A DNA stretch of 63,326 nucleotides, the filler included, from Deltaproteobacteria bacterium (lineage in GTDB: Bacteria; JAEEML01): the NCBI GenBank assembly GCA_016283195.1. It is 6 parts of 6 records of this genome, joined end to end, with 100 filler letters (N's around TTAATTAATTAA, not from the genome) between each part and the next. Parts side by side here need not be neighbours in the genome. Positions count along the whole stretch, not along the records: positions 5,036 to 10,759 come from JAEEML010000143.1; 5 more parts are not named here. One strand, written 5' to 3'. The notes below the pieces were generated by a model. That model did no database searches. It was not told where the DNA came from and saw nothing but the letters and a program-made list of their open reading frames with translations. How positions within the stretch are numbered: the first letter of the stretch is position 1; the number at the start of each line of letters is the position of its first letter. The position numbers and the translations under genes are program-made. This document shows positions 4,936 through 60,042 of the stretch, piece by piece.

Positions 4936-5035
4936 NNNNNNNNNNNNNNNNNNNNNNNNNNNNNNNNNNNNNNNNNNNNTTAATTAATTAANNNNNNNNN
5001 NNNNNNNNNNNNNNNNNNNNNNNNNNNNNNNNNNN
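4936..5035. other. Assembly spacer
   Basis: 100-nt N block with central TTAATTAATTAA. Confidence 0.99.
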
Positions 5036-5121
5036 GATCCCATCCCGAACTCGGTAGTTAAGCCCTCTAGCGCCGATGGTACTGCAGCTGTAAGGCTGTG
5101 GGAGAGTAGGTAGCTGCCAGA
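5036..5121 (+). rRNA. rrf: 5S rRNA, 3' portion
   Basis: gatcccatcccgaactcgg...ttaagccc...agcgccgatggtactgc...gggagagtaggt..ctgccag matches the bacterial 5S consensus. Confidence 0.95.
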
Positions 5122-5122
5122 T

Positions 5123-5280
5123 CCTCACCCCCTGACCCCCTCTCCATTTTCTGCGAAAATAGCGAGGGGGAACTTGGGAAAAAAATTAGCCCCGAAAGGG
5201 GCTTTTTTTTTGCCCGCCTCACCCCACCGCAGCGGAAATTATGGCATATCGCCCTCTCCATTTTTACAAATAGAGAGGGC
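5123..5280. repeat. REP-like palindromes, copies A (5136-5170) and B (5251-5280)
   Basis: cctcacccc leader followed by imperfect ccctctccattt...aaatag(a/c)gaggg hairpins. Confidence 0.7.
5188..5211 (+). terminator. Intrinsic terminator of the rRNA operon
   Basis: AGCCCC-GAAA-GGGGCT followed by a T run. Confidence 0.88.
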
Positions 5281-5420
5281 ACATATGATTGAATTTATAT
5301 GTATTTTATAGATGGAATTATAAAGACTATTGGCGAAATATAGAAAGCTGTGGCTGGGCTGACTGTAAGCAGCTATCAAAAGCCAAAAAGTGTGCTATAG
5401 TGGAAAGCGGAGGTGTGAGA

Positions 5421-5630
5421 ATGTTGGCAACAGCAGCGTATGTGACAGGTGATACAGTAACTATTCGCGATGAAAAACTTAAAGTTTTTGACGGGCACCA
5501 GATAATAGTTAATATATTTTTGCCTGAGCAAAAGAAGAATGCGGCCGAGCGTTTTTTTGAAGTAGCCAACAAGGTTCATGGCAATTCTATGGGTCAAAAA
5601 TGGACGCGAGAAGAATTGCATGAACGATAG
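5421..5630 (+). CDS. Putative type II antitoxin (VapB-like)
   Basis: GGAGG RBS; 69 aa ending KWTREELHER; overlaps the start of the PIN gene. Confidence 0.72.
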   Translation: MLATAAYVTGDTVTIRDEKLKVFDGHQIIVNIFLPEQKKNAAERFFEVANKVHGNSMGQKWTREELHER

Positions 5631-6033
5631 AATTTTTATCGACTCGAACATTTTGGTTTATAGCATTGATGACAATGAACCAAAAAAGCAGAGTGTTGCC
5701 AATAAAATTATATGGCAACTGGCGGAAGATGGTGGCACTATTTCAACGCAAGTTTTGTAAGAGTTTTATAATATTGCCACCAAGAAGCTTGGTTTATCTA
5801 AAGAACAGGTCAAAGAGCTAATTGAGCGGCTGGCTGATTGTTTTACTGTTCATAAAAACTCAGTTGCCGATATTTTGCGAGCCATAGAAATTAGTATCAA
5901 GACGCAGTTTTCATTTTGGGATTTCCTTATAATCTCTGCCGCAATTGCCGAAGGTTGTGCGATATTATATTCCGAAGATCTAAGCCATGGGCAGGTGGTG
6001 GACGGGGTGAGGATAGAGAACCCTTTGGGCTGA
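5620..6033 (+). pseudogene. PIN-domain (VapC-like) toxin with in-frame TAA at 5758-5760
   Basis: MNDRIFIDSNILVY...ISTQVL*EFYNIATKKL...FSFWDFLIISAAIAEGCAILYSEDLSHGQVVDGVRIENPLG; the frame continues past the stop. Confidence 0.9.
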
Positions 6034-6068
6034 TTTTTCAAAACCAGCGCTACCTCCGCCTGCGGCGG

Positions 6069-6160
6069 CCCTCACCCCAAAAGCAGCGAAAAATTTATCA
6101 TGTTGCCCTCTCCATTTTTACAAATAGAAAGGGTGGGCGCCGTAGGCGGCCGGGTGAGGG
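6069..6160. repeat. REP-like palindrome, copy C
   Basis: Near-copy of 5217-5280; outer CCCTCACCC (6069-6077) pairs with GGGTGAGGG (6152-6160). Confidence 0.72.
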
Positions 6161-6229
6161 AAGGCAAACAAGCGGCGGTTTCTCCACCATTTTCCTAAAA
6201 ACACTTGCCAAATACAAATACTCTATATT

Positions 6230-6393
6230 GCAGGCACGCCCATCAGGTAGGACACGATATAGGTTTTAATAGCGCTGGGAAATTCAATGGACCTTGCGGC
6301 TTGGGCCGTGAGGTCTATCGTTTGGCGGTTTGCCCGTAGTTAACCCTGACCTCATGTGTTTTACCAGTTGGTGATCGAGGTAGGGGCTTTTTT
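6230..6393 (+). ncRNA. Candidate structured RNA of unknown family
   Basis: 14-bp hairpin 6287-6318 with G-U pairs; closing stem 6230-6240/6324-6333; 3' stem 6344-6385 followed by T6. Confidence 0.45.
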
Positions 6394-6398
6394 GCCCG

Positions 6399-6443
6399 CC
6401 TCACCCTGGCCCCCTTTTCATTTTCTCACGAAAATAGCGAGGG
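6399..6443. repeat. REP-like palindrome, copy D
   Basis: cctcaccctggcccccttttcattttctcacgaaaatagcgaggg resembles copy A. Confidence 0.65.
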
Positions 6444-6502
6444 ATGCAGCTAGGTGAAATTATGCGGTTGGTGTGAATGGAGGTATAAAGGCTACGGTAC
6501 GA

Positions 6503-7238
6503 TTATTCTTCGTGCCCTGCTAATTCTCGTTCTATTTCCTCTATGGTGGGTAAGGATGCTTCCAACTCTTGGGGAATTGTATCCTGAAGCTTATTTTCCC
6601 AATCGGCAACGCCTATAGGATTTGTAAAACCAGTCAGAGCATACTTTACAACAGTATCATTCTTTCCTTTTACTAGCAGCAGTCAGATTGCCGGCTTATC
6701 ATCGGGATGATTTAAAATCCTATTTACAGCGTTTAAGTATAGATTTAATTGTCCGGCAAAACCTGGATTAAATTCACACACTTTTAGCTCTATAACAACG
6801 TAACGTCGCAGCTTTAAGTGGTAAAACAGTACCCCAGGGAATTTGTGCAATGAGCTGTTGCACAATTTGAAAGTCCTCCCATTCCTGCGCAAATTTCCGC
6901 ATATATTTAATATTGCGCGGTGAAAATCCTTTCATTTCAGGAAATTCTTTCCTTAGGTCATACGAAATGCGGTCTATAACTTTTGCGCCCCAGCCTTCTT
7001 CCTGCTGCTTTTCCAATATAGCTTTTCCGATATTCCAATATAGACATATCATAGAAGCATTAGCCTGTAAGGTAACGCTGAGGCGGGCATGATGGATATT
7101 GTTTTTCAGAGCCTTTATGAAATCAGAATATGAGGCCGTCATTTCTGCTTTTTCCGGTGGTGCGGTAAAACGTACTTGATTATTTTCATCAGAAAAGCCT
7201 TTGCGCTCATCTTTACTTTTGATTTTGTTGTTCTTCAT
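6503..7238 (-). pseudogene. YhcG/DUF1016 PD-(D/E)XK-domain protein, internally deleted and frameshifted, with a nonsense codon
   Basis: N-domain (LYWNIGKAI, GWGAKVI, GFSPRNIKYMRKFA, QIPWG) is joined out of frame to the C-domain (LFYHLKLRRYVVIELK...GQLNLY...PAI*LLL...LPTIEEIEREL). Confidence 0.87.
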
Positions 7239-7341
7239 CAGTATTCTTGCCTTTCTGAAGGTTATATAGGCTGTATGATATAGGCTGCCTTAGCGGGTGT
7301 CAAGTAGGGGAGGGTCGATTTAAATAGTAGGAATATTTGGA

Positions 7342-7535
7342 TTAGAGATAACGCTCAATAAACAAATCTATTAGAACAGCGCCTTCGATTAGAATAATAT
7401 TATGGCTATCAGCCAGAACATGAGCATCAGGGCTGAACGTGGCTAAGGTAATAGCGCAGCCTTGAGCCGATTCGGCTTGGTCTTCATCAATGATTTTAAT
7501 GAGTTGCTCGATGGCATTTTTGCCGGTTACATCTC
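7342..7535 (-). pseudogene. C-terminal fragment of an Mrr-like restriction endonuclease
   Basis: Translates ...AIEQLIKII...QGCAITLATFSPDAHVLADSHNIILIEGAVLIDLFIERYL*; no start codon or N-terminus. Confidence 0.6.
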
Positions 7536-7545
7536 GTTAGGCTAA

Positions 7546-7935
7546 TTATATTTTTGAGATTACATCTTGGCGAACCTTGGCATTATCTGTGTCGTTGGCA
7601 GCTATTTTATTGAATTTATATATTAGATCAGCATATTGTAGTAAACTGGTCTTAATCGTTTTGAATCTTTCATTGTATGCTATAAGAATAACATCACAAT
7701 ATTTGTGATTATTAATAAAATCATCAACATCTCCCTGTTTATCTCCCATTGATAGAATGCCTATTGATTGGTTGTTATATGAAAGTACCACGGTAAAATC
7801 TTTGGAATCTCCTCCAATTTGAGTTTTTGGTTCGATAATATTTGTGCCATTTGGACTAAGTTTAATAAAAATATCATTAATCGTAGTTGTTTTTCCTGTG
7901 CTACTTTTACCGTAAATAACTAAAATTTTTTTCAT
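7546..7935 (-). CDS. Small P-loop-containing hypothetical protein
   Basis: ILVIYGKSSTGKTTT Walker A; AT-rich; AAGGA RBS. Confidence 0.7.
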   Translation of the reverse strand: MKKILVIYGKSSTGKTTTINDIFIKLSPNGTNIIEPKTQIGGDSKDFTVVLSYNNQSIGILSMGDKQGDVDDFINNHKYCDVILIAYNERFKTIKTSLLQYADLIYKFNKIAANDTDNAKVRQDVISKI

Positions 7936-7976
7936 CGTTTTATCCTTTATTTCCGAGCATTATTGCTCTTGGTTTG

Positions 7977-9518
7977 CTAATCTCTTACGCAGCGCACCGA
8001 GACGCCGTACGTCTTTTTGAGGCTGAACATGCGCGCATTGCTGCTATCCACGTACAGGTTGTACGCGTAGGAACTACTGTCCTCCGTACTTGACCAGAAG
8101 TAGGCGTACGACCCGAAATAGTGGTAGCTGCCGGAGAGGCAGTTGCCGGCGGGAAGCGCCCCAAAGCCATATTTATCGGCACCGCTACTCCATGTGGTGG
8201 CCCGCAAGTTTTGCGACCGAGTTGAACTATCAGAACCAACATAAGTAAGCAAACTGTCAAACTCTGCTTTTGTCGGCAATCTCCAGCCAGTTGGGCAGAA
8301 ATTGGCACTTGTTGCCGTGGCCCAAGTGTAAAGCAAGCCGTAAGTAGCTACATTGCTTGAATTGTTATTGGGATTGTAATAGGTGCCGGTTTTGCGCTGA
8401 TAGTTTTCGGCCATCCATTCCCTGCCATTAATAATAACTGTTTTATAAGTGTTTCCGGCTTGATCAGTGACTGAACCATAGGCAGTGCAATTTGTGCCAT
8501 ACCCCTTAGTTGTATCGCACTCGTCACAATTGGCCCCAGTCATCAGTGAGTTCTTGCACTCATCGCAATTAGCGCCAGTCATCAGTGAATTCTTGCACTC
8601 GTCACAATTGGCCCCGGTCATCAGCGAGTTCTTGCACTCATCGCAATTAGCGCCAGTCATCAGTGAATTCTTGCACTGATCACAATTAGCGCCAGTCATC
8701 AGTAAGTTCTTGCACTGGTCACAATTGGCCCCGGTCATTAGTGAATTCTTGCATTCATCACAATTGGCCCCGGTCATCAGCGAGTTCTTGCACTGATCGC
8801 AATTAGCCCCAGTCATCAGTGAATTCTCGCATTCATCACAATTGTTCCCAGTATATTTTTTTTCGCAGCTTCCGGCTTGGCAATGCCCGGTTTGCGGGTC
8901 AAGAGCACCATGAACGCACTTTATTTCTTTATCACAATTTACCCCGGTGTAGCCGCTTGGGCAGCTAAAGCATTCGCCGGTGCCGCTTCTGCCTTCACGG
9001 CAATAGAGGCTGCCGCAGTCGCATTTTTGGCAACTTGGCCCATAGTAACCAGGCTGGCATTCTTCGCAGTTTTCGCCGGTAAAATTAAAAGCACACACAT
9101 CGCAATTGTCACCGCTCCAGCCTAACAGGCAATCGTAGCATCTATCACCTCCATGGTGGCCAATACAAACACAGCTACCGGCCCCATTACATTCTTGAAA
9201 GTCCCCACTACAATAAACAACCTTTTGACCTTTAGGAAAAGGTTCGCAAATATGAGAGCTTTGTGAACAGTAAGAGCAAGGCCCGCCGCAATCTTCATCT
9301 GACTTGCAATTGGCTACACATTTGCCATGGGGGTAGAGTTTATCATCAATGCAAGTAAAGCCTTCCGGGCATTCTAGGTCTTTGGTGCAAGCTTGGCCCG
9401 GTTCCAAGTCGGGCAGCTCGCCCGCAAATTCGGCATCCGGATTCTCTTTTAAAAGATCGACGCCGCAGGCCAGGAGATTAAAAGAGGCTAATAAAGCTAA
9501 TATTTTTAAATACTTCAT
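7977..9518 (-). CDS. Cys-rich lipoprotein with EGF/laminin-like stalk and C-terminal FISUMP (Fib_succ_major) domain
   Basis: Lipobox LLAC; DQAGNTYKTVIINGREWMAEN, YGLLYTW, CPTGWRLPT, FGALPAG, FWSSTE and SVRCVRD motifs. Confidence 0.88.
   Translation of the reverse strand: MKYLKILALLASFNLLACGVDLLKENPDAEFAGELPDLEPGQACTKDLECPEGFTCIDDKLYPHGKCVANCKSDEDCGGPCSYCSQSSHICEPFPKGQKVVYCSGDFQECNGAGSCVCIGHHGGDRCYDCLLGWSGDNCDVCAFNFTGENCEECQPGYYGPSCQKCDCGSLYCREGRSGTGECFSCPSGYTGVNCDKEIKCVHGALDPQTGHCQAGSCEKKYTGNNCDECENSLMTGANCDQCKNSLMTGANCDECKNSLMTGANCDQCKNLLMTGANCDQCKNSLMTGANCDECKNSLMTGANCDECKNSLMTGANCDECKNSLMTGANCDECDTTKGYGTNCTAYGSVTDQAGNTYKTVIINGREWMAENYQRKTGTYYNPNNNSSNVATYGLLYTWATATSANFCPTGWRLPTKAEFDSLLTYVGSDSSTRSQNLRATTWSSGADKYGFGALPAGNCLSGSYHYFGSYAYFWSSTEDSSSYAYNLYVDSSNARMFSLKKTYGVSVRCVRD
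8517..8840 (-). repeat. Eight 39-bp tandem units encoding CD(E/Q)CKNSLMTGAN
   Basis: Visible in both DNA and protein. Confidence 0.95.
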
Positions 9519-9527
9519 AATAATCTC

Positions 9528-10118
9528 CTAAAAGTTTAAAGCCAAAGTTAGAGAGCTTTCTTCTGGGCTGATGGCTGGTAAGAGGGTAACTTTGGGCTTT
9601 TGCGCTTTTTCTAATTTGTGCTTGGCGCGCACTTGCATAGCACCCAAAACAATAGATGTAACCGCCGCCGCGCCGCCCACGCCAAAAGCGATGTAAGATA
9701 TTTTTTTGTTTTTGGCCGCACTTGTTTCTAAATCTTGCAAATAGAGCATACTATCAAATACTTGCGGATTGCTGCGGCGCTTTTCTTGCTTCTTGGCAAT
9801 GGCTAAAAAGGCGGCTCCTGTGCCAATCCCCCCAGCTCCGCCTACAAGGCCCACAGTGAGGGCGCTGGCCAGGAAAGCTTTCTTTTGCTTTTCATAGCGA
9901 GTGATGCGCTTTTGTTTCCTGGCCTCCTGGCGGGCGGCTTCTTCGGCCTCTTCCTGGGCTGCATTTTGCTCTATAGCTGCTCCAGTGGTGGCGGTGGCCT
10001 CATTGCCACTAACCGGGCTGCCGTAAAGATCCTGGGCCGAATTTCCATAAATATCCTGAGCCAGAGCAGGGCTGGCAAAACCCAAAACGGCGATGAACAA
10101 CAAGATATTGCGCCCCAT
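9528..10118 (-). CDS. Exported/membrane hypothetical protein
   Basis: Signal peptide (PALA), two Gly-rich hydrophobic helices, C-terminal ...SLTLALNF. Confidence 0.75.
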   Translation of the reverse strand: MGRNILLFIAVLGFASPALAQDIYGNSAQDLYGSPVSGNEATATTGAAIEQNAAQEEAEEAARQEARKQKRITRYEKQKKAFLASALTVGLVGGAGGIGTGAAFLAIAKKQEKRRSNPQVFDSMLYLQDLETSAAKNKKISYIAFGVGGAAAVTSIVLGAMQVRAKHKLEKAQKPKVTLLPAISPEESSLTLALNF

Positions 10119-10121
10119 GGC

Positions 10122-10556
10122 TCACTCCGCATTCTGCCAACCGGTGTCGTCTTTTAATTTGGCCTCGCTAGCCACTTGAGGAGCGCCGTTCTCAATGACT
10201 GTAGTGTATTTGATGGCCAGGGCCGAACCGTAGCGGGTTACCGTGCAAGTGCTTTTGTCATCATCTTTTTCGCAATTGGTCACTGCTTCGATTTTCACAT
10301 TGATGATGTCGTGAGCGCCCAGAGCGTGAGCTTTTACCATGAGATCATGGTAAATCATGGCCGGGCCGTTTTTGCTTGCGGCATTTAGTGTGGCCTTGGA
10401 AAAGACCAGCGAGAGCGGTTCATAATCTTTGAGCGGCAGGGCAGCGGTGGCATAGCTGCCAGCCTCGGCCGCAGCTTTAACCCGCAATTGATGGCCGCCG
10501 CAAGCAGTGAGAGAAAGAGCCGAGACGAATAGACAGATTTTTACAAAATTGCTCAT
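10122..10556 (-). CDS. Lipoprotein, hypothetical (YbjQ-like fold possible)
   Basis: Lipobox LTAC; KAHALGAHDIINVKI...YGSALAIKY; GGAGG RBS. Confidence 0.75.
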   Translation of the reverse strand: MSNFVKICLFVSALSLTACGGHQLRVKAAAEAGSYATAALPLKDYEPLSLVFSKATLNAASKNGPAMIYHDLMVKAHALGAHDIINVKIEAVTNCEKDDDKSTCTVTRYGSALAIKYTTVIENGAPQVASEAKLKDDTGWQNAE

Positions 10557-10680
10557 GGTAAACCTCCTAGATTAGCAAAAAAATGCCGTAATGATGCAAA
10601 AAAATATGCAAAATTATTGAATAAATTGCAAATTTTGTCTTGAAATATTTTTAGATATGTGCTTTACTTAAATAAAGCGA

Positions 10681-10759
10681 CTGAACTGAACTGAACTGAA
10701 CTGAACTGAACTGAACTGAACTGAACTGAACTGAACTGAACTGAACTGAACTGAACTGA
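10681..10759. repeat. (CTGAA)n pentanucleotide microsatellite, at least 15 units, running into the gap
   Basis: Seen directly. Confidence 0.97.
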
Positions 10760-10859
10760 NNNNNNNNNNNNNNNNNNNNNNNNNNNNNNNNNNNNNNNNN
10801 NNNTTAATTAATTAANNNNNNNNNNNNNNNNNNNNNNNNNNNNNNNNNNNNNNNNNNNN
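10760..10859. other. Assembly spacer
   Basis: N block with TTAATTAATTAA. Confidence 0.99.
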
Positions 10860-25723: not shown

Positions 25724-26800
25724 ATGGTTACTATGGATATTAAAAGCATAAAGTATTTACTGATGGTTGTTTTCGTTGTTTTTCAAGGGGTTGCCTGCAC
25801 CACTCCCGATTCTCTGATGCAAAAAAGCGCCCTCAGAAACACTGCCAAAAGCGGAGCCGCAGCCAAGGATCTTGTTGCCTTTGTAAAAGCCAGTAAAAAC
25901 GATGACAAATTGCGCTATTGGGCTTTTCGCAGCCTCGCCACCTTCCCGGAAGTCCCGGATGCGGTGATTGACGATCTTGGCAAAATCATGCTAAATAGCG
26001 GTGAATCAAAGGATATCCGCATGTGGGCCGCTTATACGCTGGGCAAATTCAAGCGCAAAGAGGCTCTTCCTTACTTTTTGGAGGCGCTTGAGAATAATCC
26101 GGAAGCAGGTGTTGATTATTATGTGATAGAGGGCATAACCAGGCAGGTTGATGTTTTAAGCGGTGACAGGGATCTCTCTTTAAGGCTCCTGGCAGCTATG
26201 AATACTTATTTAAGCCATGCCAAAAATGAGCCGCCTTCTATTTACAATCTGCTTGATGAATACGTAGCCACACTCTCTACTCTGGTGGTGGCTATGGATG
26301 AACTCTTAAACAAAAAATATGATAAAAATGCTACCAAAACCCGCACCGAAGACCTCTACGGCGCAAGTTATCGCATTTTCCACACTATAGAACGCAGCTT
26401 GGAGCAACTATTAAATAACTATGCAGCCAATCAGATGAGCCTGGAAAAAGCTTTTGATTTAACATATAAAGCTTTGGAAACCAAATATCAGCCGGCATTT
26501 TTGCTTTATGCCTGGTATAGCGGCGAAATAGCTAATAACCCGGAGCTCTCTATATTAGCCGCTGGCAAGATTCTGCCCTGGCTTAATAATGAAGACCCGG
26601 AGCTGCGCCAATTGGTACTTTGGGCTCTAATGGAAATGGAAGTGCACAATGAAGATATAAGAGCCAAAGTGCTCAAGCACCTAGCTACCAAAGAGACCGA
26701 TCACAACACGCTGCTTATGCTTGGCGATTACAAACACAAAGCCGGTACACCTGATGTAATTCAACAGCTGCGCGGCATAAGCGTAAAGGACGATCAATGA
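25724..26800 (+). CDS. HEAT-repeat lipoprotein
   Basis: Lipobox GVAC; LRYWAFRSL, IRMWAAYTLG and LRQLVLWAL repeats. Confidence 0.78.
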   Translation: MVTMDIKSIKYLLMVVFVVFQGVACTTPDSLMQKSALRNTAKSGAAAKDLVAFVKASKNDDKLRYWAFRSLATFPEVPDAVIDDLGKIMLNSGESKDIRMWAAYTLGKFKRKEALPYFLEALENNPEAGVDYYVIEGITRQVDVLSGDRDLSLRLLAAMNTYLSHAKNEPPSIYNLLDEYVATLSTLVVAMDELLNKKYDKNATKTRTEDLYGASYRIFHTIERSLEQLLNNYAANQMSLEKAFDLTYKALETKYQPAFLLYAWYSGEIANNPELSILAAGKILPWLNNEDPELRQLVLWALMEMEVHNEDIRAKVLKHLATKETDHNTLLMLGDYKHKAGTPDVIQQLRGISVKDDQ

Positions 26801-28302
26801 ATAATTACAATAAAATAGCAGGATTTATTGCTTTATTTTTGCTGAGTGGCTGTATGGCTACTCCAGCTCCATCTTCTCCGCAAATGAAAAAATTTGACGG
26901 TGTGGTTTCAAGCTCTGTTTTTAGCAATAAACCGACAGCGGCCGAGGGCATTTACATTTATCCGGATTTAAGCCAGCGCGGCCACAAAGATGACTTACAA
27001 CTGGTGGGCGTTGGAGCAGAATTTGACAAAGTTTATCCGTTTTCCATGGTTTCGGTTATGACTCCGGACGGCCAGCTTTATTACAACGACGACCCGCATA
27101 ACATGGTCGCCAACAAAGTCTTCAGTTCAGCTAAGTTGGCCATGAATTCCTTTACTTATACAACTGGTTGCGGCACTATGGGCAGCAATTACTCTTTTTC
27201 ACCTGTGCGCGATGTCCTTTGCAGTGTAGATAGCGGTTACACTATAAAAACTTCTCTCGGCAACACTTCCACTTTAACCGTCATGCGCCCGCTTTATCAC
27301 ACAAAATATTATCAGCCCTATACCCGCTATGGCATCAGCAAGCCACAACCGCCGCGCGGTTACAGCGGCAATAGCGGCCGCCACGGTACAGATGGTATCA
27401 ACGGTCGCAGCGGTAGCAACGGTAGCAACGGTTCAAGCGGCAGCAGCGGTGGCCACGGTAGCCGCGGCGGCAACGGCACCGATGGCAGCAGCAATGCCTA
27501 CGATGGCGAAAATGCCGGTCACGGTGCCAACGGTGAGCGTGGCGATGATGGCCCATATCTCCTGGTTAATATCCGCCCCATATACAGCAAATTCTACCCG
27601 GGCGAAAAATTGGTTTATATGAATATCGACGCCACTTGGCATAATTTGCGCGGCGAAGCCTACAAGCGTGCCGCTCTCAACTATATTTTTCATCAAAATG
27701 AGCAATTTATTGTCACTACTGTCGGCGGCGACGGCGGCCAGGGTGGCCATGGCGGCAACGGCGGCGCCGGCGGTCGCGGCGGTAACGGCGGTAACGGCGG
27801 CCGCGGCGGTAACGGCGGTAACGGCGGCTATAATCCCGATGGCCGCGGCGGTAACGGCGGTGATGGCGGTGACGGCGGCAACGGTGGCAACGGCGGCAAC
27901 GGTGCCATGGGCGGCAACGGCGGTGACGGCGGCAATGGCGGTGACGGCGGCAACGGTGGCATTATAGAAATTAATCTCTACGGCGATAGCAGCTTTATTG
28001 ATAATGTCAAACGCAATATCATTTTTAAAAGCGTTGGCGGCCAAAGAGGCGAACGTGGCCTGGCCGGTAGCAATGGCAACCCGGGTTTGGCCGGCAGAGG
28101 CGGCATTGGCGGTGCCGGCGGTTCGGGCGGCGCGGCCGGTTGCGGTCAATCTTGTGGTACAGCCGGTAGCAGCGGTTCTCGCGGGCGCGATGGTCGTGCC
28201 GGCAAAATGGGCTATACCAATAGCCACCGCACCTATGATGGCGCTCCCGGGCGCAACGGCTATGGCCAAAATATAACTTTCCACACCAATTACGAGGGCT
28301 AA
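26797..28302 (+). CDS. Gly-rich (GGNGG/GxxG) lipoprotein
   Basis: Lipobox LSGC; three Gly-rich tracts separated by short beta segments; ATGA overlap with the upstream gene. Confidence 0.82.
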   Translation: MNNYNKIAGFIALFLLSGCMATPAPSSPQMKKFDGVVSSSVFSNKPTAAEGIYIYPDLSQRGHKDDLQLVGVGAEFDKVYPFSMVSVMTPDGQLYYNDDPHNMVANKVFSSAKLAMNSFTYTTGCGTMGSNYSFSPVRDVLCSVDSGYTIKTSLGNTSTLTVMRPLYHTKYYQPYTRYGISKPQPPRGYSGNSGRHGTDGINGRSGSNGSNGSSGSSGGHGSRGGNGTDGSSNAYDGENAGHGANGERGDDGPYLLVNIRPIYSKFYPGEKLVYMNIDATWHNLRGEAYKRAALNYIFHQNEQFIVTTVGGDGGQGGHGGNGGAGGRGGNGGNGGRGGNGGNGGYNPDGRGGNGGDGGDGGNGGNGGNGAMGGNGGDGGNGGDGGNGGIIEINLYGDSSFIDNVKRNIIFKSVGGQRGERGLAGSNGNPGLAGRGGIGGAGGSGGAAGCGQSCGTAGSSGSRGRDGRAGKMGYTNSHRTYDGAPGRNGYGQNITFHTNYEG

Positions 28303-42180: not shown

Positions 42181-42280
42181 NNNNNNNNNNNNNNNNNNNN
42201 NNNNNNNNNNNNNNNNNNNNNNNNTTAATTAATTAANNNNNNNNNNNNNNNNNNNNNNNNNNNNNNNNNNNNNNNNNNNN
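42181..42280. other. Assembly spacer
   Basis: N block with TTAATTAATTAA. Confidence 0.99.
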
Positions 42281-50919: not shown

Positions 50920-51019
50920 NNNNNNNNNNNNNNNNNNNNNNNNNNNNNNNNNNNNNNNNNNNNTTAATTAATTAANNNNNNNNNNNNNNNNNNNNNNNNN
51001 NNNNNNNNNNNNNNNNNNN
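50920..51019. other. Assembly spacer
   Basis: N block with TTAATTAATTAA. Confidence 0.99.
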
Positions 51020-52503: not shown

Positions 52504-55284
52504 TTAGGCCAGTTCGTTAAGGCGCTTTAAACTGGCCTCTAAGCCCTTTTTCATCTCCAGGGCCTCAGCCAATTTAGTCTCTTCGGCCGCTACCACCTCG
52601 GCCGGGGCGCGGTCTTTAAAAGAGGGATTACTGAGCTTGCCATTAAAGCGGGCGATATCCTTTTCCAATTTAGTTAGCTCTTTATCTACTTTGGCCTTTT
52701 CGGCCTCCACATTGATAAGGCCGGCCAGTGAAACGGAAATTTCGCCGCAATTTACCACAATGGCCAGGTTGCCGGATTCGTGGTGCAGTTCATCTACAAA
52801 GGTCACATCGGCATTAGAAAGGCGCATAATGGAGCTCACCTGCTCATTAAGAGCTGCGGCCAGGTTGGCCTTAGAGAGGCGCACTTTGGCACTTAGGCGC
52901 ACTTTGGGCGAGATGGTATAATCGGAGCGCACAGCGCGAATAGCGGTCACAATTTGCATTAGAGCGCCGAATTGCTCCTCAGCCGCGCTGTCGATAAGAT
53001 GCTCAGCGGCCACCGGATAGGGGCTAATCATGATGGATTCCGGCATATCGGCACGGCGCGGAATATTCTGCCAGAGTTCCTCAGTGATAAAGGGCATAAT
53101 GGGGTGCAAGGTGCGAAGAGCCGTTTCCACCACATAATAGAGCGTATCCTGAGCATTTTTAAAGGCTTCCGGATCGGCGGCTTCACCGGCTTGAATCACC
53201 GGCTTAATAGTCTCTACATACCAGTCGCAAAGCTCATTCCAGATAAACTGGTAAATAGCCATGGTCACTTCGCTAATCTTTACCTCGTCCATGCCGGCGG
53301 CCACCACTTTGAGCATATTACTTAGGCGCGAGAGGATCCACTTGGCCGGGAGGGTCTTTGGCTCCGGCGCACTGGTAACCGGGGTATAATTTTCGCCCAG
53401 AGTATTGAGCAAGAATCTGGTTAATTGCCAAATTTTATTGCCAAATTTCCTATAGCCTTCAATGCGCTTGATGGAGAGGTGAATATCTTTGGTCTGCGCC
53501 GTATAGGCGGCCAAAGTAAAGCGCATGGCATCGGCACCGCAGGCGGGGATACCCTCGGGGAAGAGCTGCTCCTGAGCCGCTTTGGCCCGTTTTAGCTCAG
53601 CCGGCGGCAAGTTATAGCCTTCCAGTTTGTGGTAGAGATTATCCAAATCAGAGCCATCGATAACATCCAGCGGATCGATGACATTGCCCGTGGCTTTAGA
53701 CATCTTTTTGCCGCGCTCATCACGCACCATGGCATGCAAGAGCACCTGTTTAAAGGGCACATCGCCCATAAAATGGATGCCCATCATCATCATGCGGGCC
53801 ACCCAAAAAAAGAGAATATCGTAGCCGGTCTCCAAAACGGAGGTGGGGTAAAAAGTCTTTAAAAGCTGCGTATTTTCCGGCCAGCCCAGAGTTGAGAAGG
53901 GCCAAAGAGCCGAAGAGAACCAGGTATCGAGCACATCTTCGTCCTGGTGCAGATTGTGCGAGCCGCAGTGTTTACAGGCAGTCGGCGCCTCCACGGCTAC
54001 TGTCTCTTTGTGGCAGTCATCGCAATACCAGGCGGGGATGCGGTGGCCCCACCAGAGCTGGCGGGAGATGCACCAGGGCTGGATATTTTCCAGCCAGTGA
54101 TAGTAAGTTTTTACCCACTCGGCGGGGATAATCTCGGTTTTACCCTCCTCTACCGCCTTTAAAGCCTCTCTCGCCAGCGATTCGGTATTGACAAACCACT
54201 GGGTGCTGATCATCGGCTCCACCACTGTCTTGGGGTGACGCTGACAGCGGCCCGGCGCATAGATGTGCTCTTTGCTGCCGCGGGCGAGGCCACGGGCTTC
54301 GAGCTCATCTTTCACTCTTTGCCGCGCTTTAACAGTGGTGAGACCGGCAAAATCGCCGCACTCTTCATTGAGAGTGCCATCAGGGTTTAAGATGTTGATA
54401 AATTCCAGATTATTGCGCTTACCGCAGGCAAAATCGTTGGGATCGTGGGCCGGAGTCACTTTAACGGCGCCGGTTCCAAGCTCCATATCGGCCAGTTCCG
54501 GGTCGGCAATAATGGGAATCTGCCGCTTTAAGAAGGGATGCTGCACCAATTTACCAATCATGGCTTTATAGCGCTCATCATCGGGGTGCACGCAAACTGC
54601 TGTATCGCCAAAAATAGTCTCCGGGCGGGTGGTAGCCACCACTATCTCGCCGCTACCATCAACTAATTGGTAAGCAAAAGACCAAAGTTCGCCCTTCTCC
54701 GGCTCTTCTCTATCCACTTCCAAATCGGAAAGAGCGCTTTGGCAGGAGGTACACCAGTTGATAAGACGAGTATCGCGGAAAATAAGCCCCTCTTCATAGA
54801 GCTTAACAAAGACTTCACGCACGGCGCGGCTTAGGCCCTCGTCCATGGTAAAGCGCTCCCGCTCCCAATCCACCGAGGCTCCCAGGCGCTTTTGCTGCTC
54901 TTTAATGCGATTGCCGTATTTTTTCTTCCACTCCCACACTCTTTCCACAAATTTTTCGCGGCCGATTTCGTGGCGGTTTGTCCCCTCTTTGGCTAGTTGG
55001 CGCTCCACCACCATCTGGGTGGCAATACCGGCATGATCAGTACCGGGCAGCCAGAGAGTGTTATAGCCGCACATTCTCTTATAGCGGATCAAAAGGTCCT
55101 GAATAGTGAGCGTAAGGGCATGGCCCATGTGCAAAGCGCCGGTGACATTGGGCGGCGGAATCACAATACAATACGGCGGCTTATCGGATTTTTCCTCGGC
55201 GTGAAAATAGCCTTTTTCTTCCCAGAATTTATACCATTTATCTTCTATTTGTGCCGGTTCAAAAGCAGAGGCTAGAGGGCTCAT
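52504..55284 (-). CDS. valS: Valine--tRNA ligase
   Basis: PPPNVTGALHMGHA, GTDHAGIATQ, WCISRQLWWGHRIP, KMSKA; C-terminal coiled coil. Confidence 0.98.
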   Translation of the reverse strand: MSPLASAFEPAQIEDKWYKFWEEKGYFHAEEKSDKPPYCIVIPPPNVTGALHMGHALTLTIQDLLIRYKRMCGYNTLWLPGTDHAGIATQMVVERQLAKEGTNRHEIGREKFVERVWEWKKKYGNRIKEQQKRLGASVDWERERFTMDEGLSRAVREVFVKLYEEGLIFRDTRLINWCTSCQSALSDLEVDREEPEKGELWSFAYQLVDGSGEIVVATTRPETIFGDTAVCVHPDDERYKAMIGKLVQHPFLKRQIPIIADPELADMELGTGAVKVTPAHDPNDFACGKRNNLEFINILNPDGTLNEECGDFAGLTTVKARQRVKDELEARGLARGSKEHIYAPGRCQRHPKTVVEPMISTQWFVNTESLAREALKAVEEGKTEIIPAEWVKTYYHWLENIQPWCISRQLWWGHRIPAWYCDDCHKETVAVEAPTACKHCGSHNLHQDEDVLDTWFSSALWPFSTLGWPENTQLLKTFYPTSVLETGYDILFFWVARMMMMGIHFMGDVPFKQVLLHAMVRDERGKKMSKATGNVIDPLDVIDGSDLDNLYHKLEGYNLPPAELKRAKAAQEQLFPEGIPACGADAMRFTLAAYTAQTKDIHLSIKRIEGYRKFGNKIWQLTRFLLNTLGENYTPVTSAPEPKTLPAKWILSRLSNMLKVVAAGMDEVKISEVTMAIYQFIWNELCDWYVETIKPVIQAGEAADPEAFKNAQDTLYYVVETALRTLHPIMPFITEELWQNIPRRADMPESIMISPYPVAAEHLIDSAAEEQFGALMQIVTAIRAVRSDYTISPKVRLSAKVRLSKANLAAALNEQVSSIMRLSNADVTFVDELHHESGNLAIVVNCGEISVSLAGLINVEAEKAKVDKELTKLEKDIARFNGKLSNPSFKDRAPAEVVAAEETKLAEALEMKKGLEASLKRLNELA

Positions 55285-55346: not shown

Positions 55347-56945
55347 TTAGGCGTTGTTTTTCTTAATAAGTTCGGCCACATGCTCTTTAATAATCACTTC
55401 GGCCAGCTGCGGCACCACTTCCCAGGCGATGCGCTCGATAATTTCGCGTGCTTCGGCCGAGAGAGCGGCGTGGGTAACTCCGGGAGCAATCTCTTTTTCC
55501 GCTTTAGCCACAACTTGTTCTTCGGCTTTGGCCACTATATCAGCTACTGGAGCGGGAGCCGGGGCCGGCTCTTCTTTGGCTATAACCGGCTCAGCTACAG
55601 GTGTCACAGAAACTACAGGTGTTACCGGAGCAACTGGGGCAACAGGCGCCACCGGAGCTACTGGAATAACCGGAGCGGGCTTTTCTACCACTGGGGCAAC
55701 AGGTACTACCGGAGCTACCGGGGCAACAGGGGCTACAGGAGCAACAGGAGCAACTGGCACAACCGGAGCCGGTTTTTCTACCACTGGGGCCACAGGTACT
55801 ACCGGAGCTACCGGGGCAACAGGGGCTACAGGAGCAACAGGAGCAACAGGCACAACCGGAGCCGGTTTTTCTACCACTGGGGCCACAGGTACTACCGGAG
55901 TCACCGGAGCGACAGGGGCAACAGGCACAACCGGAGCTACTGGAATAACCGGAGCCGGCTTTTCCACTACAGGGGCTACAGGATGCACAGGAGTAACCGG
56001 TACAACCGGGACTACCGGAGTCACAGGCACTACCGGAGCCGGCTTTTCAGCTACAGGAGCCACCGGGTTGACAGGGGCTACAGGATGCACAGGAGTAACC
56101 GGTACAACCGGGCGCACCACTTGTGGTGGCACCGGCGGTGGTGTAAAGGTGCTACCAGGCGGAGTAACCGGACGCAACTGCGGCGGCACCGGCGGCAAGA
56201 AAGAAGGCCGCGGCGGCACCGGCGGCACATGATCACCGGCCTGAGCAGCTGGAGGAATGGGTCTTAATAACGGCATACCGTTGGGGCCAACAGCTTGCGG
56301 CGCTACTGGATGAACAGGCAGTAACGGCTTGGGAGCTACAGGTGCTACAGGAGCTACAGGTGTGGCCACAGGAGCAACAGGTGCCACAGGAGCTACAGGT
56401 GCTACAGGAGCTACAGGTGTGGCCACAGGTGCTACAGGTGCCACAGGAGCTACAGGTGCCACAGGTGCTACAGGTGCGGCAACAGGTGCTACAGGTGCCA
56501 CAGGTGCTACAGGTGCCACAGGTGCTACAGGTGCTACAGGTGCTACAGGTGCGGCAACAGGTGCTACATTCTGGGCATTACCACTCACAGCATTTTGCAC
56601 AACCTCGAGAAGTGTCTTAGTCTCAAAAGGTTTCTCAACGTGCAAAGATACACCGGCAGCCGCCGCTTTACCTTCATCATAAGCCTCAAATTTGCTGTTC
56701 ATTAAAACAACAGGAATTGCCGCAAGAGCGGCATCGGCCTTAGCCGCAGCAGCCACGTCATAGCCGTTCATATCGGGCATACCGACATCAATAAGCATAA
56801 CATCAGGCATTATTTCCTTGGCTTTGGCCAGAGCGTCATTACCGCTTCCGGTGGCCACAACCTGAAAATCTTCGGTGGCAAAGGTTATCTCTACTACTTT
56901 TTGCATAGTCACGCTGTCATCAGCAAGCAAAAGCTTATGGGCCAT
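55347..56945 (-). CDS. romR: RomR-like polarity response regulator
   Basis: Receiver domain (LLLADDS...ID..MPDMNGY...KPF), very long Pro/Val/Ala linker, C-terminal [22 protein letters not shown]; immediately upstream of valS. Confidence 0.85.
55595..56567 (-). repeat. PVA/PVV/PVT 9-bp tandem arrays with higher-order VEKPAPV blocks inside romR
   Basis: Seen directly; two arrays separated by a Pro-rich spacer. Confidence 0.92.
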
Positions 56946-57057
56946 AAATATCCTCCCTAAAACAAAACCAGAGCTAGATAGCCCACCTTGGGCGAAAGCA
57001 CAATACAACGGAAGAATGGGAAAGGCAACTTTGAAATTCCATAATTAGCAAATATTT

Positions 57058-58892: not shown

Positions 58893-59641
58893 TTAAATGG
58901 TTAGGGCTTTTAATTGGGCAATAGAGAGGCCTGTGTATTTGGCAATAAGGTCAAAACTAAGACCATCTCTTAGCATATTGCAAGCGGTCTCCAGTTTGGC
59001 TTTTTCCATGCCTTTTTCCATGCCTTTTTCCATGCCTTTTTCCATGCCTTTTTCCATGCCTTTTTCCATGCCCTTTTCCATGCCCTTTTCCATGCCCTTT
59101 TCCATCATCGCCGCCATGCTTGATCTTCTATCTATATCGGCCATTTCTTCCTGAAATTGCTTGGCCCAGCGTAACCTGTCACCACTCATATAGGTAAGTA
59201 CAAATTCGGCAGCCATGATGCCCTCCTCTTTTTTGGCAAGGTCTTTAATGGTAGCTATTTTATTAGGATTATCGGCTTCTTTCAAAAAGATGCCCCAATT
59301 TTCCAGCGCTGAATTGGCAGAAAGGTCGGCCTCTTTGCCAGCCAGTTTGGGCAGCGATCGTAACGCAAGCCGCGCTCATCAGGGTAATCGGCAGGAGCTT
59401 CACTGGGCAAAAGGTTTACTTTGGTGATTTTGCGCTCAGTGGCCGCTTCCAGAAATGAGCGCAGAGCTGTTTTTGATTCTGGTGTGTTTTGAGTAAAAAT
59501 GGCTTTAAAAGTAGAATCAAAGCGCGGATTTAAGAGCGCACCGGTGCCGGCGCTGGCAATATAAGCCTCTTCTTCAGGGGTAAGCGCCGGTAATTCTTGA
59601 ACCTTATTGAGTTTTCTACGAGAAGCCATAAATACCTCCAT
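58893..59641 (-). pseudogene. Rpn/PDDEXK_2 family nuclease, internally deleted and frameshifted
   Basis: N-terminal LLNPRFDSTFKAIF...RGLRYD is joined out of frame to WGIFLKE...MEKG repeats...IAKYTGLS; the catalytic centre is missing. Confidence 0.85.
58998..59105 (-). repeat. 12-bp tandem repeat, 9 units (8 MEKG + MEKA)
   Basis: ttttccatgcc(t/c) array. Confidence 0.96.
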
Positions 59642-59942: not shown

Positions 59943-60042
59943 NNNNNNNNNNNNNNNNNNNNNNNNNNNNNNNNNNNNNNNNNNNNTTAATTAATTAANN
60001 NNNNNNNNNNNNNNNNNNNNNNNNNNNNNNNNNNNNNNNNNN
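59943..60042. other. Assembly spacer
   Basis: N block with TTAATTAATTAA. Confidence 0.99.

Follow-up and report, generated by a model that had tools for sequence, protein, structure and literature searches.

A candidate variable repeat of a remote diversity-generating retroelement at the C-terminal tip of a FISUMP lipoprotein

Does the C-terminal tip of a FISUMP lipoprotein from a Deltaproteobacteria bacterium (assembly GCA_016283195.1) carry the variable repeat (VR) of a diversity-generating retroelement (DGR) that is encoded elsewhere in the genome? The gene in question (7977..9518, minus strand) lies within the window, by which we mean the whole 63,326-nt stretch of DNA that was analysed, and is an open reading frame (ORF) for a predicted lipoprotein of 513 residues in which Cys-rich EGF-like repeats are followed by a C-terminal FISUMP domain. 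Our candidate VR covers codons 451-513 (7980..8168, minus strand), from a G-F-G-A-L-P-A-G motif to the last codon, and was delimited by a change point in codon usage, by the boundaries of control cassettes and by the adenine ratio of its scaffold codons. It has the position, the boundaries and the composition of proven VRs in homologous genes. The likeliest reading, to which we give about an even chance, is that it is a VR of the CLec2/FISUMP class and that a DGR at another place in the genome acts on it in trans.

Under this proposal, a template repeat (TR) elsewhere in the genome would be transcribed, the DGR reverse transcriptase (RT) would copy the transcript and misread template adenines, and the resulting cDNA would replace the stretch of codons 451-513. 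Some 22 surface codons, AAC or AAT in the template, would be randomised in this way, whereas the fold would be preserved along with the adenine-poor codons of the scaffold. One may speculate that the lipoprotein tip serves in the recognition of prey or host.

A shift of codon style at the end of the gene

The last 57 codons of the gene differ abruptly from the rest: the G+C fraction at third codon positions (GC3) is 0.81 against 0.48, codons ending in T make up 0.12 against 0.34, and codons ending in A are down to 4/57 (TCA, AAA, GTA and AGA) against a fraction of 0.18. By maximum likelihood the GC3 change point of the gene falls at codon 453, with a log-likelihood ratio (LLR) of 11.4-11.9 and 2-lnL support for codons 450-459 and for a second interval at codons 433-438. 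GC3 rises from 0.43 in codons 345-450 to 0.79 in codons 451-513 (Fisher p 5.3e-6), and the ratio of NNC to NNT among two-fold codons moves from 12:20 to 20:8 (p 0.011). The other genes of the window favour TAT (73%) and TTT (84%); in the last 57 codons of the target gene TAC accounts for 7/8 and TTC for 3/3. Such a style is rare in the window, since a GC3 of at least 0.807 is reached by just 20 of 15,474 stretches of 57 codons (0.13%; 41 ORFs), of which 8 represent the candidate stretch and 12 lie in an ankyrin gene. An earlier note on this DNA (the original prediction) had described an abrupt change of style over the last 57 codons, with just four of them ending in A, in the gene of a FISUMP lipoprotein with the protein end SVRCV. 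These descriptions hold, the last two by the family matches given below and by the sequence itself (the gene ends ...TCGGTGCGCTGCGT), and the upper coordinate that it had proposed, 8160, lies within codon 453, the computed change point.

Proven cassettes and sister copies

Our control set consists of 79 fetched loci with 176 near-full-length homologous domains, mostly from Fibrobacterota and Bacteroidota and at most 46% identical to the target domain. In five of these loci (L025, L030, L036, L061 and L066) the C-terminal stretch occurs twice, the second time as an Asn-rich, non-coding copy that lies 0.5-1.3 kb beyond the VR stop codon. Per 80 nt, each of the five VR/TR pairs has 68-75 identities and 0 non-A mismatches. 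Four of the five TRs are followed by an RVT_1 ORF, and two of the loci contain bAvd; no RT is found on the 8.9-kb contig of L025. A sixth VR, L046, is located on another contig of the assembly that holds L025. Set against the TR of L025, it shows non-A mismatches at a rate of 3 per 80 nt; judged by this match, L046 is a real remote target. Both derive from a Chitinispirillia metagenome-assembled genome (MAG), L030 and L066 from Bacteroidota MAGs, and L036 and L061 from Fibrobacter MAGs. The sites concerned in the Chitinispirillia MAG are L025:2169-2370, on the contig that has a target and a TR, and L046:6744-6923, the second target. The domains of the control cassettes belong to PF09603 (E 1e-26 to 1e-49). 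Every one of the five has a TR/VR homology that runs from G-F-x-A-L-P-A-G to the stop codon or a few bases beyond it, and the AAC/AAT codons of the control TRs fall on 22 alignment columns, hereafter the variable columns.

The candidate VR, running from the motif at codon ~453 to the stop, coincides with the TR/VR boundaries of all five proven cassettes, and its gene shares with the six controls the PF09603 domain, the VR start and end and the variable columns. Along the alignment the GC3 change point falls at position 109 in the target and at 109, 103 and 110 in L025, L046 and L066, in each case as a rise. The size of this rise (delta-GC3) is 0.36 in the target and 0.42 in L046, against a homologue mean of 0.07 (standard deviation 0.14); the target's value is exceeded by 6/176 homologues, three of which are proven VRs. 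Adenines are likewise scarce in the scaffold, with a scaffold-to-upstream adenine ratio of 0.44 in the target, 0.28-0.48 in the six proven VRs and 0.66 on average in the other homologues, 22/170 of which also have a ratio of 0.48 or less. Where the target departs from the controls is in the absence of a TR on its contig; in five of the six controls one lies 0.5-1.3 kb beyond the VR stop codon.

A second line of evidence comes from sister proteins, three NCBI-sourced database entries (P0122, P0008 and P0121) that we compared with the target at the protein level. The target and P0122 are identical at 45/50 scaffold positions against 5/22 variable columns, and the target and domain 1 of P0008 at 46/51 against 5/21, with 34/66 identical upstream; the two sisters themselves agree at 43/50 scaffold positions and 2/21 variable columns. 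P0121 is more distant from the target (scaffold 38/51, variable columns 8/22). A scaffold-minus-upstream identity of at least 0.28 combined with a variable-column identity of at most 0.35 occurs in 0 of 14,064 control pairs. The residues by which the sisters differ from the target are compatible with a fixed third base in 19/19 cases for P0122 and 20/21 for P0008 domain 1, against a background of 82%. For the proven sisters L025 and L046 the corresponding counts are 29/35 for the scaffold, 3/21 for the variable columns and 50/74 upstream, and their DNA is 0.89 identical in scaffold codons against 0.67 upstream, a pattern that the variation among the target's sister copies appears to resemble. 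In a cluster look-up the target protein and nine of ten relatives are singletons, P0072 and P0131 forming the sole two-member cluster.

A separate observation concerns FISUMP paralogues of different Fibrobacter MAGs (L005, L006, L031, L049, L069, L071 and L078; L004, L009 and L040), whose nucleotide identity is 83-91% in VR scaffold codons and 52-72% upstream; for many such paralogues the values are 84-91% and 52-68%. No TR is found within the fetched flanks of these loci.

Origin of the candidate stretch

Several observations weigh against a VR served by a remote DGR. Within the window, an adenine-tolerant scan of both strands recovers the candidate VR itself alone (the runner-up has 26 non-A mismatches per 100), and a Pfam scan of 55 window ORFs finds no RVT_1, bAvd or 23S_rRNA_IVP, as expected from the original prediction, which had reported the window to lack RT, Avd and template. 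Because the contigs of the window are separate pieces and that of the target gene (5036-10759) is just 5,724 bp long, a length that the protein database records as well, a missing cassette in the window says little. An IUPAC pattern that keeps the third positions and scaffold codons of the VR and sets the presumed variable bases to N matches the VR alone within the window and has 0 matches in 185,579 species genomes; the VR itself is missed as well, and this collection therefore lacks the host genome and any relative that shares the scaffold. No Asn-rich TR-like ORF is found among 10 matches of a word-indexed search of shorter proteins, or among 4 examined of at least 150 matches listed in a HMMER search of 1.84 billion representatives, where multi-domain proteins dominate and a weak TR-ORF could rank lower. 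The five control TRs, tried as templates of the candidate VR, were rejected at 17-21 non-A mismatches per 80 nt.

The composition of the stretch calls for similar caution. An LLR of at least 11.38 together with a GC3 rise occurs in 9/176 homologues, just three of them proven, so the codon shift is unspecific, and adding the scaffold (adenine ratio of at most 0.48, LLR of at least 8 and a GC3 rise) still selects three proven and nine unproven homologues. L002 and L071 have the codon shift (LLR 9.2-9.7) although neither matches the TR known from its own assembly, and the tandem paralogues of L029, considered as sister VRs, were rejected though the codon shift is present. Codons ending in T fall as much as those ending in A. 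A DGR by itself would not be expected to have this effect, although the same is seen in the proven VRs L025 and L046. Adenine depletion at codon positions 1-2 alone is unremarkable, at the 26th percentile. The NNC/NNT codons that had been taken as a cue to a DGR are indeed seen at 21/22 variable columns of the target, and their share in proven VRs is 0.76-0.95, but the feature is family-wide (mean 0.77, and at least 0.95 in 17/170 homologues without a known TR), and because of this we dropped it as a DGR test. Finally, the paralogue P0072 and its 90%-cluster mate P0131, on two contigs, are identical in the VR region. Remote DGR targeting may, as far as the Fibrobacter paralogues suggest, be common in the FISUMP family; if it is, some of the 'unproven' homologues may be real targets, and the chances of the target gene would rise.

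Part of this evidence speaks for a relic or orphan VR, in which a DGR-made composition has been kept after TR or RT was lost or diverged, no functional DGR acts now, and the gene evolves like any other FISUMP paralogue, under diversifying selection on lectin-like binding loops. Style shifts without a matching TR in L002 and L071, from assemblies with a DGR, and in the L029 array, the family-wide NNY-type residues at the 'variable' columns, the identity of P0072 and P0131, and the empty scans of the window and of the species genomes (the host's not among them) are all in its favour. We nevertheless hold it to be somewhat unlikely: in a relic one would expect synonymous sites to move towards the TAT/TTT preference of the genome, yet TAC and TTC prevail, and sister scaffolds that are ~90% identical against 10-24% at the variable columns look like the product of a recent or ongoing process. 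Exchange of cassettes by homologous recombination or gene conversion among paralogues would give the stretch the composition of its donor, with the conserved NLRATTWSSGADKYGFGALPAG and SVRC blocks as anchors and partial copies like P0122, a 76-aa ORF, as donors. In line with such exchange, P0008 domain 1 matches the target at all 22 residues that precede the shift and P0122 at all but two of them, identity to P0008 domain 1 drops to ~52% further upstream, P0122 starts exactly at the conserved block, and the change point has its second support interval at codons 433-438. Conversion, however, should transfer scaffold and variable positions together, yet it is at the columns with AAC/AAT in proven TRs that the copies differ; the adenine-poor scaffold codons are left unexplained, the window contains no second copy, and we consider cassette exchange improbable as the origin of the stretch. 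It is in our view highly improbable that lipoprotein tips are diversified without a retroelement, by segmental conversion from partial promoterless C-terminal cassettes such as P0122, although this, if true, would mean that an uncultured lineage related to Myxococcota has a pilS/vls-like variation system that acts on a lectin-like fold. That the composition arose by chance, or that two paralogues or strains were wrongly assembled into a chimera inside the conserved motif of a fragmented metagenome bin, we find scarcely credible. The window does consist of short contigs joined by linkers, and repeated conserved motifs favour mis-joins, but neither the reading frame nor the domain is disrupted, the predicted fold is confident (pLDDT 93), the GC3 shift is significant (p 5e-6), and it coincides with a biologically defined boundary found in independent assemblies.

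The remote DGR VR of the original prediction thus stands in its anatomy, which fits five proven cassettes, and lacks its partners in the window, where TR, RT and Avd were not found. If a TR and an RT were found, they would constitute a DGR that acts in trans on several targets, FISUMP lipoproteins with EGF repeats, in a poorly known Myxococcota-related lineage, and would mark the surface proteins that the host uses for variable ligand recognition. For orphan VRs on short contigs more generally, a GC3 change point at G-F-x-A-L-P-A-G, an adenine-poor scaffold, and sister copies with an identical scaffold but scrambled variable columns could serve as flags, of which the first two alone are, by our controls, unspecific.

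The kind of system proposed here is already documented, FISUMP/DUF1566 targets and remote DGR targets both being known in the literature (parts of PMC5758913, PMC4159848 and PMC11661182). Passages of PMC5758913 assign VRs that overlap DUF1566, DUF823 or Fib_succ_major to a 'category d' of 51 DGRs, all CLec2 VRs included, in agreement with the earlier claim that DGRs target Fib_succ_major domains, and they count non-adjacent targets in 45/372 DGRs; 43 FISUMP targets are recorded in part of PMC11661182. With the CLec2 class, whose exemplar in passages of Wu et al. 2018 (PMC5758913) is Legionella LdtA, the target shares the lipoprotein nature, a C-terminal, probably lectin-like domain that also scores as Lcl_C/DUF1566, a putative VR at the extreme C-terminus ending ...SVRC, and a best PDB fold match to the Legionella Lcl C-terminal domain. 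It differs in being known without TR, RT or Avd, in its N-terminal part of EGF-like Cys-rich repeats and a 39-nt tandem array, and in its host, which looks like a deep Myxococcota/'Deltaproteobacteria'-related lineage. As an idea, remote targets diversified in trans recall the TvpA-type DGR of Treponema denticola (cited in passages of PMC5758913). Several sister tips (P0122, P0008 and P0121) appear to exist for the target as well, although its cassette is hypothetical. The lectin subtype of TvpA is another one, FGE-sulfatase-like.

The lipoprotein and its surroundings

The N-terminus of the target lipoprotein, MKYLKILALLASFNLLAC, carries a putative signal peptide with a lipobox (residues 1-18, ...NLLAC; 9465..9518, minus strand), recognised by inspection of the translation. 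Between it and the FISUMP domain, a 39-nt tandem repeat of 8.6 copies with 83% matches (8517..8852, minus strand; Tandem Repeats Finder and translation) encodes Cys-rich 13-aa units, CDxCKNSLMTGAN, and forms a stalk that could be variable in length. The FISUMP domain itself, of a putative C-type-lectin-like fold, occupies residues 345-513 (7980..8486, minus strand). Membership in the family is above the curated cut-off for both TIGR02145 (residues 355-513, E 2.9e-38, 132.3 bits against 41.65) and Pfam Fib_succ_major (PF09603; residues 361-512, E 1.9e-26, 94 bits against 33.9), and further Pfam matches of the protein are to Lcl_C (DUF1566; E 1.6e-8) and EGF_STAB1-2 (E 2.7e-6).

An AlphaFold2 model of residues 345-513 has a mean predicted local distance difference test score (pLDDT) of 93.2. 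Its fold matches in the PDB are all weak (TM-scores 0.4-0.57) and are led by the Legionella Lcl C-terminal domain (8q4e, E 1.6e-3, TM 0.42/0.52), followed by the C-terminal domain of Bdellovibrio Bd2740 (8oks, E 0.085, TM 0.40/0.57, 12% identity) and then by snake-venom C-type-lectin-like proteins at E of at least 0.19. We know of no link between Bd2740 and DGRs. A sequence search of the PDB gives 0 matches, and phage records searched by blastn in distant mode with 7940-8200 give none.

Eight nucleotides past the stop codon, in the 41-nt spacer to the next gene, lies a small hairpin, GAGCA-ATAA-TGCTC, with a 5-bp stem and a 4-nt loop (7955..7968, minus strand), which the original prediction had read as a DGR feature. 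The hairpin is present, but it is too weak to be diagnostic: folded as DNA it reaches -4.6 kcal/mol (z -2.5), and 7/200 shuffles fold equally well. Hairpins after four of the six proven VRs are stronger, L046 has none and that of L066 is equally weak; because the feature is weak and non-specific, we dropped it as a DGR test. According to passages of PMC5758913, a good inverted repeat is present in just 127/372 DGRs.

Immediately upstream of the target gene, 9528-10118 (minus strand) encodes a 196-aa protein that is 34% identical (pairwise E 6e-24) to a C-terminal extension behind the FISUMP domain of P0094, a resemblance that points to a functional link between its product and that of the FISUMP gene. 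Directly downstream, 6774-7935 (minus strand) contains an AT-rich 129-aa ORF (local GC 0.23-0.35) that matches no family but has a Walker-A-like motif, GKSSTGKT, along with a DUF1016_N ORF that covers 98/137 profile positions, and this DNA looks foreign or decayed. The contig ends at 10680-10759 in a perfect repeat, ACTGA x16.

Five linkers of the form N44-TTAATTAATTAA-N44 (4936-5035, 10760-10859, 42181-42280, 50920-51019 and 59943-60042) divide the window. Since it strings together at least six separate contigs of a draft or MAG assembly, adjacency across a linker has no meaning. On a neighbouring contig, a valyl-tRNA synthetase (52504-55284, minus strand) has no more than 60% identity to any protein in the database, and its named matches are Deltaproteobacteria, Myxococcota and Polyangia MAGs, which by sequence comparison indicates that the host probably belongs to a deep, poorly sampled lineage related to Myxococcota / 'Deltaproteobacteria'. 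An Rfam scan of the window at gathering thresholds gives 0 matches. Other ORFs contain coding repeats of 9 and 12 nt in long arrays: Gly/Asn-rich repeats in 26797-28302 (27363-27996), a 12-nt unit in 58893-59285 (58985-59128), and further repeats in a response-regulator ORF, 55347-57008 (55535-56577).

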